Sequence record: PZ445465.1
Reading direction: 5' to 3' (one strand)
Length of the DNA: 46,037 nucleotides
Source of the DNA: a phage
The notes beneath the pieces are model-generated. The model ran no database searches and had not been told where the DNA came from. It was given only the letters and a program-made list of their open reading frames with translations. This document shows, in pieces, positions 15,683 to 39,221 of this stretch. Position numbers and translations under genes: made by a program. Position 1 is the stretch's first letter. Each line of letters opens with the position of its first letter.

Positions 15683-15685
15683 ACA

Positions 15686-15711
15686 AAACCCGCATCATGC
15701 GGGTTTTTTAT
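15686..15711. terminator. bidirectional rho-independent terminator
   Basis: CCCGCA-TCA-TGCGGG followed by TTTTTTATT, between convergent operons. Confidence 0.6.
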
Positions 15712-15713
15712 TG

Positions 15714-16250
15714 CTACAGACGCATCGGCATAACAACAATCTTAGCAGTCTCGCCAGATGGCGCATTAAGACAGCAAACTGCGGCATTTGTGTTTCCATT
15801 AAGTTCAAATTTGATACAACTGAATTTAGGATTAAACAGCTTCGCCACTTTCTCAACGTCAACCAGATATCCAGCATTGAAGCCAATTTCCTCTGCTGGC
15901 AAGGTCTGCTTCGGAATGACGCGATCAATATCAGGGAATCGCCCGTCAATCTCTTCACAGATACCAGCACCAACCATAACGCCAGCTTCATCATGATACG
16001 TTGCAATTTTCGACTTTGTATCAATGATGGCGTAGTCATAGCGTTTTGTTGGTGACTTGCCAATCTTGATAATCACATTTTCTGTAAGATTATTATCATG
16101 GTTTCCACCAATAAATGCGCGATGACCGTCAGTTGATGCAATACGACCATCAGGCATAAAGCAAATGCCATTCAGGTAATATCGCACATCGTTGCGCGCC
16201 TGAAATATTAATGCTGATTCAAGTAATAGTTTGCCGATTTTTAGTTTCAT
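15714..16250 (-). CDS. miniaturised beta sliding clamp (DnaN)-like protein
   Basis: 178 aa containing DVRYYLNG...TDGHR, IDGRFPDIDRVIPK, EIGFNAGYLVDV and C-terminal VVMPMRL; these match E. coli DnaN domain II/III segments and its C-terminus as recalled from memory, but the protein is under half DnaN length. Confidence 0.7.
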   Translation of the reverse strand: MKLKIGKLLLESALIFQARNDVRYYLNGICFMPDGRIASTDGHRAFIGGNHDNNLTENVIIKIGKSPTKRYDYAIIDTKSKIATYHDEAGVMVGAGICEEIDGRFPDIDRVIPKQTLPAEEIGFNAGYLVDVEKVAKLFNPKFSCIKFELNGNTNAAVCCLNAPSGETAKIVVMPMRL

Positions 16251-16423
16251 CACTTCACCTTAATCATATGCTGTTTTGCAACCTTCAGGCACTCCTCAAA
16301 AATGCCACCCTTCTTTGCGCTCTGATTGCGCTTGTAATACTGAACTGCCGCATCAATTGCCATCTGGTCGATTTCAGGCAGTTTGGTGCGTAGTTGTTTT
16401 TCAATGAATTGTTCTGGTGTCAT
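16250..16423 (-). CDS. hypothetical small protein (57 aa)
   Basis: unlisted ORF; ATG 16423 overlaps the methyltransferase stop (TAATG) and its stop overlaps the DnaN-like start (TGATG); GAGGT RBS. Confidence 0.4.
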   Translation of the reverse strand: MTPEQFIEKQLRTKLPEIDQMAIDAAVQYYKRNQSAKKGGIFEECLKVAKQHMIKVK

Positions 16424-17220
16424 TAAACGGACCTCATGAATGCTTTAATGAATTCTGCTGCGACTTGTGGAACTATGGCATTGCCATAACCGCGCAATCG
16501 TCCCACTCTTGCGGATACCCCATGAGTTGCCTCGCAAAATCCGCCTGGTATGACTCTAGTTTCCTTATCTGCTCCATGGTTGGGTTTCCATGAATCCCAT
16601 AAACATGAAGCCACATCTGGCGATAAAGAGTATCGTTCCTGAATTTTCCGTCCTTTCTGTAAAATGTCTTGCTGAGATCCCCGTAATCCTTCCATCCTCG
16701 CGCCGTTGGTGTCGCCCATCCTCGCGCCAAAGATGATTCTTTTCCTTTCCTGTGGAGAGCCGACGCTGCAAGCTGGCAATACTGACGCCCCGCAGGCGTA
16801 GCCTTTGTCTTCCAGGTTAAGGAATACAAAATCGAGCCAGTGCTTCCCAATTGCTGCTGCAACCTGCTCTCCAAACAGCAATTCAGGCTTGCACTCTCTG
16901 ATGAGCCTGAGAAATGCTGGGGCAAGGTGTCGATCGTCGTCAAATCCGAGAGACTTACCGGCAACGCTAAACGGCTGGCAAGGTGGTGATCCTGTCCAGA
17001 GTCGAGTGCTTTCTGGTATTCCTGCCAGCTGGAGTGCAAGGGGCCACCCTCCGATTCCGGCAAAGAAGTGACACTGTGTAAATCCTTCCAGGTCTGAAGG
17101 GGTGACTTCGGTGATTGATCGTTCATCGACATATCCGTAAGGAATTAGTTTATTGTTAATTAATTCACGCAGCCATGCCGCTGCGCCCTTGTCCCACTCA
17201 TTGTAATAGTGGACCATCAT
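16423..17220 (-). CDS. DNA (cytosine-5) methyltransferase
   Basis: motif I FFAGIGGW; motif IV GSPPCQPFSVAG (canonical PCQ motif); ENV-like FGEQV. Confidence 0.75.
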   Translation of the reverse strand: MMVHYYNEWDKGAAAWLRELINNKLIPYGYVDERSITEVTPSDLEGFTQCHFFAGIGGWPLALQLAGIPESTRLWTGSPPCQPFSVAGKSLGFDDDRHLAPAFLRLIRECKPELLFGEQVAAAIGKHWLDFVFLNLEDKGYACGASVLPACSVGSPQERKRIIFGARMGDTNGARMEGLRGSQQDILQKGRKIQERYSLSPDVASCLWDSWKPNHGADKETRVIPGGFCEATHGVSARVGRLRGYGNAIVPQVAAEFIKAFMRSV

Positions 17221-18029
17221 CACATCTTCTCCAGAATTGCCATCACCTCGTGAATATCAGCAACAGGAATCTGGATAAACTCCTCATTCTCTGCCACTAC
17301 ATGACCAGCAGGAAGAATAACGTGGTCAGCTGGCTTCAGTAACTCAATCAGTCGGTCTACTGGCTTAATCTTTTTCGACTTAAGCACCTTCGCCGTTACC
17401 TTATCCTTGCCTTGCGCCTTCGCTTCTTCGACTGCCTCGTCGATAACTTTAACCGCATCATCGCCATGTTCGCGAGTTACTGCTACGGCATTTGCATAGC
17501 TGATTTGCCCTGCACTGATTCGCGCTTTTACTTCGGCTGGCACATCACCCAGTGACAGGTGCATCTGCACGTCAGAAACTGAGCGCCCTACCTTCTTGGC
17601 GATTTCCTCGTTGGTCCAGCCAAAACCCTTCAGTCGCGTGTAAGCCTTTGCGCGTTCAAACGGGTCAAGCTGCTTACCCTGACTGGACGACACCATGAAG
17701 GCGATTTTATCTGCTTCGCCTCCTGTGAAATCCTTGCACTCAATACGAACAATTGGTGCGCCACGCTCAATGGCACGCAACGCTCCGAGATAGCGATGCT
17801 GACCATCAAGAATGCGGATTCCCTTCTCGTCTGGAATAACTGTTAATGCTGGCAATGGCTGACCTGACTCCCAGCACTGCGCGAAATACTCCACATGCTG
17901 CTCATCTGCCTCACGGATGTTGTATCCCGGCTCAAGATAGATTTGCTCAACTGGAACGAGATATGTTTTGTTAACAGCGATGCCGTTACGCGTTTCTTTG
18001 TCTGAATAGATTTTGCTGAGTGTTTTCAT
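17220..18029 (-). CDS. ParB-like nuclease domain protein
   Basis: ILDGQHRYLGALRA (the ParB/Srx DGQHR motif); start set at ATG 18029. Confidence 0.7.
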   Translation of the reverse strand: MKTLSKIYSDKETRNGIAVNKTYLVPVEQIYLEPGYNIREADEQHVEYFAQCWESGQPLPALTVIPDEKGIRILDGQHRYLGALRAIERGAPIVRIECKDFTGGEADKIAFMVSSSQGKQLDPFERAKAYTRLKGFGWTNEEIAKKVGRSVSDVQMHLSLGDVPAEVKARISAGQISYANAVAVTREHGDDAVKVIDEAVEEAKAQGKDKVTAKVLKSKKIKPVDRLIELLKPADHVILPAGHVVAENEEFIQIPVADIHEVMAILEKM

Positions 18030-18030
18030 A

Positions 18031-18222
18031 TCATTCACCACTTTCTTCTAACAATTGCTCATAATATGCGACGTATTCATTAGCCAGATGGTACAGGCGA
18101 TCAGCAGACTTGCGTTCTGCATTGCTTAAGTCATCAATAGACTCAATGTTGCCAATTGCATCAACACAATCATTGAAGTCTTGCTCCGTGTTACGGAATC
18201 TACAGTAGGACATGTTTGCCAT
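18031..18222 (-). CDS. small acidic protein (63 aa)
   Basis: ATG 18222 with GAGGAG RBS; high Asp/Glu content. Confidence 0.45.
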   Translation of the reverse strand: MANMSYCRFRNTEQDFNDCVDAIGNIESIDDLSNAERKSADRLYHLANEYVAYYEQLLEESGE

Positions 18223-18224
18223 AA

Positions 18225-18485
18225 TCACTCCTCGTCACCCTGAAAAATACCGCCAAACTCTTCAACCAGTTCATCAATGCATTCGTCCGCCTCAGCGCAA
18301 TTGCCAGCGGCACTCAGCAGAATATCAACAGCCTCATCGTCAGGAATGTTGATTGCCGAGAAGAACTCAACAATGCACATTTTCACAACCTGATATTCAC
18401 CTTCTGTCTGGCAAGATGCGAAACTGCAAGCGACCGCATCAATCAGCTTGGCTTTGTCATCACTTGGGTTATCAATATCAAACAT
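18225..18485 (-). CDS. small strongly acidic protein (86 aa), first gene of the leftward early operon
   Basis: ATG 18485 with AGAGGTG RBS; about 22 D/E versus 3 K/R. Confidence 0.5.
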   Translation of the reverse strand: MFDIDNPSDDKAKLIDAVACSFASCQTEGEYQVVKMCIVEFFSAINIPDDEAVDILLSAAGNCAEADECIDELVEEFGGIFQGDEE

Positions 18486-18505: not shown

Positions 18506-18552
18506 TTGTTGTTTCTACGTCACTAACTATAAACGCACCATCAATCTACGTC
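18506..18552. promoter_or_regulatory. divergent promoter/operator region
   Basis: GTTTCTACGTC (18511-18521) and CAATCTACGTC (18542-18552); plus-strand TTGTTG-N16-TATAAA (18506-18533); lies between divergent gene starts 18485 and 18602. Confidence 0.45.
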
Positions 18553-18601
18553 AACAGGAATATGCTAAAATCATGCTAATCAAAAAACAGGAGATTTGAG
18601 C

Positions 18602-23147: not shown

Positions 23148-23441
23148 TTACATGCCATTCTTTTCACACAAAGCAACAGCCACATCACGCAATTGCTCTT
23201 TAGTCATATCCTTGCGTGCATAAACCATTTCTACGATAGCAAGGCCGATTATTTCTGCTGATTCGTTGTTTTTTGCAGAACCTTTTACCACCACTTCCGC
23301 AAGATTCTTGCTGATACCGTTATCGCGAACATCAGCAGTGTTCATGGCGATTTCTCCAATGTTTTTGCACATATCGGAAGTCGCACTGGCGGCAAAAGAA
23401 GAAGCCAATAGTACAGATGCAATCAACATTTTAATTTTCAT
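23148..23441 (-). CDS. secreted small protein with cleavable signal peptide
   Basis: MKIKMLIASVLLASSFAASA signal peptide and no lipobox; GAGGTG RBS; first gene of the leftward cassette. Confidence 0.5.
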   Translation of the reverse strand: MKIKMLIASVLLASSFAASATSDMCKNIGEIAMNTADVRDNGISKNLAEVVVKGSAKNNESAEIIGLAIVEMVYARKDMTKEQLRDVAVALCEKNGM

Positions 23442-39180: not shown

Positions 39181-39221
39181 TTGATGTTTCTACGTCAGTT
39201 AGCTTATACTCAATCTACACC
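39181..39221. promoter_or_regulatory. divergent promoter/operator between helicase and primase
   Basis: TTGATG-N18-TATACT on the plus strand with GTTTCTACGTC (39186-39196) inside the spacer; CAATCTACACC at 39211-39221. Confidence 0.45.

Follow-up and report, generated by a model that had tools for sequence, protein, structure and literature searches.

Ocr (T7 gp0.3), ArdA, Arn and gp5.9 are small and very acidic anti-restriction proteins that mimic DNA, usually as dimers whose surface carboxylates follow the spacing of DNA phosphates, and DNA mimics of the Ocr type are encoded by the first gene behind a host-type promoter. Phage proteins of the ParB fold are widespread orphans tied to DNA-modifying enzymes; ParB-methyltransferase fusions are common in phages, and a DNA-modifying enzyme that is activated by a ParB protein has a precedent (PMC12704722, PMC13229309). 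In the CTP-dependent ParB/Spo0J/KorB DNA clamps, the nucleotide-binding Box II segment has the form GERRxRA. C5-cytosine methyltransferases of the M.HhaI and M.HaeIII type carry an N-terminal motif I (FxGxG), followed by PCQ (motif IV), ENV (motif VI), QxRxR (motif VIII) and GNA(I/V)xP (motif X). The beta sliding clamp, DnaN, comprises three domains and about 366 aa and forms a ring-shaped dimer.

Here we analyse a leftward operon of a phage (sequence record PZ445465.1; "the window" denotes the whole stretch of 46,037 nucleotides) that encodes proteins comparable to each of these. It is an ordinary, annotated accessory locus, and the interpretation offered for it by a first-pass annotation, which had proposed anti-restriction functions, is supported only in part.

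Results

Operon organization and promoter

At the nucleotide level the phage is 93-99% identical to ZCEC08, HC6 and Bas79, and its sequence places it among the Skatevirus-like siphophages of the Salmonella/E. coli type; the operon genes are 93-100% identical to those of deposited phages. Six closely spaced minus-strand genes lie downstream of one conserved sigma-70-like promoter, with a terminator at the end (Table 1). The gene content and operon structure are as first described, and every minus-strand open reading frame was recovered by our ORF calls, including an 86-aa product with 22 D/E against 3 K/R, a second small acidic protein of 63 aa (14 D/E against 5 K/R), and a 57-aa ORF followed by a DnaN-like gene. 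Start and stop codons of neighbouring genes abut or overlap across the whole operon, which is consistent with one transcription unit. The operon, flanked by the capsid genes on one side and the head-tail genes on the other, runs in the opposite direction, and host RNA polymerase would transcribe it from the conserved promoter, presumably early in infection.

Table 1. Positions of the operon genes and associated signals in the window
Feature	Position	Strand	Basis
Sigma-70-like promoter, TTGACG-17 nt-TATAGT	18526..18554	-	scan, 10/12 match
Motif copy 2, GTGACGTAGA, extended ...AAACAACA, 5' leader	18514..18523	-	10-mer enrichment
86-aa strongly acidic protein, operon gene 1	18225..18485	-	ORF, PHROG match, charge count
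Acidic protein, 63 aa (ATG 18222) or 65 aa (GTG 18228)	18031..18228	-	ORF, phrog_8760
ParB-like protein	17220..18041 (start 18041/18029)	-	Pfam/PHROG profile matches
Orphan C5-cytosine DNA methyltransferase, 265/266 aa	16423..17223 (start 17223/17220)	-	PF00145
57-aa basic protein, pI 9.4	16250..16423	-	phrog_4439
Truncated beta-sliding-clamp homologue, 179 aa, last operon gene	15714..16253	-	alignment to E. coli beta
Bidirectional intrinsic terminator closing the operon	15685..15707	.	terminator scan

A divergent promoter had been proposed upstream of the first gene. Its leftward half stands, being called by the scan and identical base for base in Bas79, LPST10, ZCEC08 and Seszw_1; since the scan gave no excess of promoter-like sites in the region over shuffled sequence, conservation in these four relatives is the stronger support. 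The rightward half does not hold up equally: the candidate TTGTTG-16-TATAAA (18506-18533) is weak, matching at 8/12 by eye, and was not called.

The -35 hexamer of the operon promoter falls within an enriched 10-mer, TTGACGTAGA. A second copy of this motif sits past the -10 hexamer and ahead of the ribosome-binding site, and its extended form recurs at 39189 and 43278, again in leaders. Overlapping -35 hexamers, the enriched 10-mer may be plain promoter sequence; the TGACGTAGA sites are also candidate targets of the ParB-like protein. No repeated palindrome of at least 12 bp that would resemble parS was found, and a search of the promoter region for parS-like palindromes or a repeat array yielded nothing convincing.

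Core genes and cassettes

The 86-aa, 63-aa and methylase genes are cassettes: some close relatives have them, others lack them or have another gene in their place, and promoter and leader are conserved whichever gene stands first. In Bas79 and ZCEC08, the 86-aa gene is swapped for an unrelated, non-acidic gene of 207 aa, the boundary of the swap being exactly the start codon. The 63-aa gene occurs in only some relatives and is absent from seszw and Bas79, while LPST10 has a 72-aa ORF in the methylase position and seszw has no methylase.

The ParB-like gene is a core gene of the phage group. Salmonella and E. coli members share 98-99% identity in its product, as do relatives devoid of the methylase, and the gene is kept in a 36.6-kb genome-reduced seszw mutant. 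The clamp-like gene is lost from this mutant; seszw mutant 300L.2, in which it is deleted, is viable.

All genome-reduced seszw mutants listed still carry the 86-aa gene, which one would not expect if it were a dispensable accessory gene. In the same study the deletion of T7 gene 0.3 was also unsuccessful, and retention of the 86-aa gene is therefore weak evidence.

With regard to the last gene, residues 8-170 of its product align to residues 136-302 of E. coli beta, and its C-terminus (...VVMPMRL) matches the end of that protein; TIGR00663 scores 36 bits (cut-off 137.65). The PHROG name of this gene, "RusA-like Holliday junction resolvase", was rejected, given that the protein aligns to beta clamps.

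ParB-like protein

The ParB-like protein consists of a ParB/Srx-type N-terminal domain, a ParB-type HTH and a C-terminal tail. It scores 44 bits with PF17762 (cut-off 22.6), 27 with the KorB domain (cut-off 22.3) and 37.5 bits with TIGR00180 (cut-off 58.45), and aligns to residues 42-199 of T. thermophilus Spo0J (E 6e-13). In this alignment the Box II segment reads GQHRYLGA against GERRxRA, so that only G..R..(G)A is kept. The protein had been described as a ParB/Srx-type DGQHR protein with a nuclease domain. The string LDGQHRY and the ParB domains are indeed present, but membership of the DGQHR-domain family is not supported, as the model TIGR03187 (DndB-like) reaches 15.6 bits, below its cut-off of 58.85; "nuclease domain" is a historical Pfam name only, and the protein carries no sign of nuclease activity. 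Among the annotated neighbours, no ParA partner was found.

C5-cytosine methyltransferase

The assignment of the fourth gene to the C5-methyltransferases with a PCQ motif is confirmed by PF00145 (78.2 bits, cut-off 22) and by the presence of SPPCQPF. None of the six operon proteins matched a restriction-enzyme family in profile searches, in agreement with the earlier statement that the methylase is an orphan with no partner restriction gene. The motifs FFAGIGG, SPPCQPF, GEQV, PQERKR and GYGNAIVPQ can be recognized, with most residues invariant in 30 relatives; the assignments to motifs VI, VIII and X are our own reading, and motifs II and III were likewise read by eye. The variable (target-recognition) region is very short, of about 50 aa.

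In the natural order, only residues 69-171 of the methylase can be aligned to M.HhaI (49 bits). When residues 44-68 are moved before residues 2-43, the alignment becomes continuous over HhaI 9-175 (72 bits, E 4e-19), and the same rearrangement lifts the HaeIII score from 27 to 40 bits. In addition, the TIGR00675 alignment begins at profile position 25, and the N-terminal 47-residue peptide found no methylase among its solved-structure matches. An AlphaFold2 model built from 30 close relatives was unusable (pLDDT 36). As judged from the alignments, the methylase family has the permuted motif order II-III-I-IV rather than the canonical I-II-III-IV; we did not find this arrangement described in the literature, and it appears to be new here.

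A methylase of 98.5% identity is encoded in the replication module of the unrelated Kagunavirus Bas71, between resolvase and helicase genes. No ParB-like gene is annotated in the 7.8-kb stretch surrounding it, and no Kagunavirus is found among 40 sampled matches of the ParB-like protein. In Klebsiella relatives, the ParB-like and methylase genes are likewise adjacent. Bas79 carries a 99.6%-identical methylase, and Bas78 and Bas80 also have the gene. The Skatevirus isolates Bas77-81, which include Bas79, have been reported to be markedly sensitive, and the group of Bas71 highly sensitive, to the restriction-modification (RM) systems tested. Any protection conferred by the methylase must therefore be narrow and site-specific. 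The methylase is thus an orphan as first described, but the sensitivity of both groups speaks against a general self-protection.

Acidic proteins

The 86-aa protein (pI 4.05, net charge -19) is the most acidic product in the whole window, with a charge per residue of -0.22 as compared to -0.24 for Ocr and -0.10 for Arn. It is matched over its full length by phrog_14587 (E 1.2e-46, positions 1-82 of 82). Both PHROG and RefSeq name this family "anti-restriction protein"; a literature search on phrog_14587 found no experimental basis for the name. Pfam and NCBIfam gave no match for the protein, and solved structures gave no sequence match with E below 0.04. Structure prediction yields a four-helix bundle, which in a fold search resembled no solved DNA mimic or other solved structure, and hhalign comparison of Ocr and of Arn with the family profile returned a probability of 0.2% each.

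The family is confined to 32 clusters among 1.84 billion representatives, all of 42-100 aa. Every charge-counted member (38/38) is acidic, with a net charge of -7 to -20, and the only conserved acidic positions are E40 and D67, which are invariant or nearly so; a pattern of only two such positions is unlike that of a phosphate-backbone mimic. Members occur in three unrelated genomic contexts. The N-cIII interval of the lambdoid phages HK446 and ECP1 holds homologues of 42% identity; this is also the interval in which lambda ral lies. Both in lambdoid phages and in a Klebsiella Jedunavirus, the family has no ParB-like neighbour. A putative second copy in the window, a signal-peptide protein at 23148-23441, was discarded as non-significant (E 0.025 in an HMM search of all window ORFs).

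Silas et al. included one family member, HK446 gp36 (orf194), in a screen of 200 accessory genes. Their complete list of genes with a phenotype does not name it; Ocr, Ral and ArdA scored. Neither the 63-aa protein nor the ParB-like protein nor the methylase has a relative in this gene set.

We also considered whether the 86-aa product could be an Arn-like protector of methylated DNA from McrBC. This idea was rejected, as the two genes do not occur together consistently: the acidic protein is encoded in LPST10 and seszw, which lack the methylase, and Bas79 has the methylase but no acidic protein.

The 63-aa protein (-0.14 charge per residue) is the third most acidic in the window, where several other small ORFs are as acidic. 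It belongs to phrog_8760, in which the N-terminus MANMSYCRFRNT is invariant, and a distant relative sits in a long array of small ORFs that all run in one direction.

Discussion

Our findings lead us to propose, with moderate confidence, that the locus is a conserved operon, running leftward, of a lytic Skatevirus-type siphophage in which core genes are combined with accessory cassettes. The genes themselves, the coming and going of the cassettes, the family assignments and the motif permutation are observed; the early timing, the biochemical activities and the targets of the products are inferred. The core would be formed by the ParB-like HTH protein, the 57-aa protein and the truncated beta-clamp homologue. 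The ParB-like protein most likely binds specific DNA sites as a regulator or as an organiser of phage DNA, and would be closer to KorB/Noc than to a partition protein or a nuclease. The methylase, which would be a self-contained orphan from a large phage-specific subfamily with permuted motifs, most probably acts on replicated phage DNA and modifies a single short site, which would block only those restriction enzymes that share the site. As for the 86-aa protein, it most probably acts on the host, as a takeover or counter-defence factor whose acidic surface binds a host protein, the target probably not being a type I RM enzyme; the 63-aa protein may, less certainly, have the same host-directed role. 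On more tentative grounds, the 86-aa family, and perhaps the MANMSYCRFRNT family, could represent a new and structurally distinct class of acidic phage inhibitors, directed against some DNA-binding protein of host defence or repair, though not a type I RM enzyme, and carried as a cassette between lytic siphophages and the lambdoid N-cIII interval. We see this extension as possible rather than probable.

The first-pass annotation had regarded the acidic proteins as candidate DNA mimics. In its full form, this reading would have them, like Ocr or gp5.9, fill the DNA-binding groove of RecBCD or of restriction enzymes of types I and III, with the methylase providing general self-protection from restriction, and we consider it unlikely. 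The mobility of the acidic genes, the position of the 86-aa gene as the first behind a host-type promoter and a charge density equal to that of Ocr, with acidity conserved in the family, are all in line with it, as are the occurrence of the family in the lambdoid N-cIII interval and the PHROG and RefSeq label. However, the label is not traceable to any experiment, no homology or fold match connects the protein with Ocr, Arn or any solved structure, and E40 and D67 are the only conserved carboxylates. Moreover, HK446 gp36 has no reported phenotype in a screen that had Ocr, Ral and ArdA as positive controls, the 63-aa protein is not more acidic than several small ORFs of the window, and Bas77-81 are RM-sensitive even though Bas78, Bas79 and Bas80 have the methylase.

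The acidic proteins might instead serve the phage itself, for example as partners, chaperones or antagonists of the ParB-like protein that compete with DNA for its HTH and thereby tune the autoregulation of the operon. Their genes lie directly upstream of the ParB-like gene and are translationally coupled to it, and the 86-aa and ParB-like genes are both kept in the most reduced seszw genome. Yet Bas79 and ZCEC08 keep the same ParB with the 207-aa gene in place of the 86-aa gene, the family does without a ParB-like neighbour in lambdoid phages and a Klebsiella Jedunavirus, and neither seszw nor Bas79 has the 63-aa gene, all of which makes this role quite improbable. A functional pair in which the ParB-like protein would load on phage DNA and activate or target the methylase, by analogy with the ParB-dependent phage thymine dioxygenases, would agree with the overlapping stop and start codons of the two genes, the very short variable region of the methylase, the adjacency repeated in Klebsiella relatives and the known ParB-activated enzymes and ParB-methyltransferase fusions of phages. 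We give it very little weight, considering that the methylase of Bas71 has no annotated ParB-like gene nearby, that no Kagunavirus figures among the 40 sampled ParB matches, and that ParB is 98-99% identical in relatives lacking the methylase.

Dozens of Skatevirus-type phages with these genes have already been deposited and annotated, and the locus as such adds little. The label "anti-restriction protein" of the 86-aa family, apparently without experimental basis, should not be propagated as fact. On the other hand, accessory cassettes are swapped cleanly while promoter and leader stay invariant, which makes the first slot handy for finding counter-defence genes in therapeutic-candidate phages, and a permuted, minimal-recognition methylase subfamily, very large and of phage origin, may matter for classification and the prediction of specificity.

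Taking the operon as core genes joined by accessory cassettes, each of its products can be set beside its described counterpart. The 86-aa protein is as small and very acidic as Ocr, ArdA, Arn and gp5.9, and its gene holds the same first position behind a host-type promoter as that of Ocr; it differs from the DNA mimics of this type in its generic four-helix bundle, its few conserved acidic positions and its lack of similarity to them. The connection with the site of lambda ral is positional only, Ral itself not being known to be acidic or related to the 86-aa protein. The ParB-like protein is akin to orphan phage ParB-fold proteins, to KorB/Noc relatives and to 5mYOX ParB activators in its ParB/Srx-type domain, its HTH (KorB/Noc) and its C-terminal tail. 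Like the 5mYOX ParB activators and the orphan phage ParBs, it stands without ParA beside a DNA-modifying enzyme; unlike the 5mYOX-associated ParBs, it has an HTH. It is conserved with or without the methylase, and it departs from the ParB/KorB/Noc clamps in Box II and in having no detected parS-like site. The methylase shares FxGxG, PCQ and GNA(I/V)xP with M.HhaI and M.HaeIII, has EQV where these have ENV, and carries motif I between motifs III and IV; unlike them, it is an orphan, phage-borne enzyme of no more than 266 aa, about 50 of which form the variable region. Finally, the clamp homologue, at only 179 aa, is about half as long as the three-domain beta clamp, to whose residues 136-302 and C-terminal tail it aligns.

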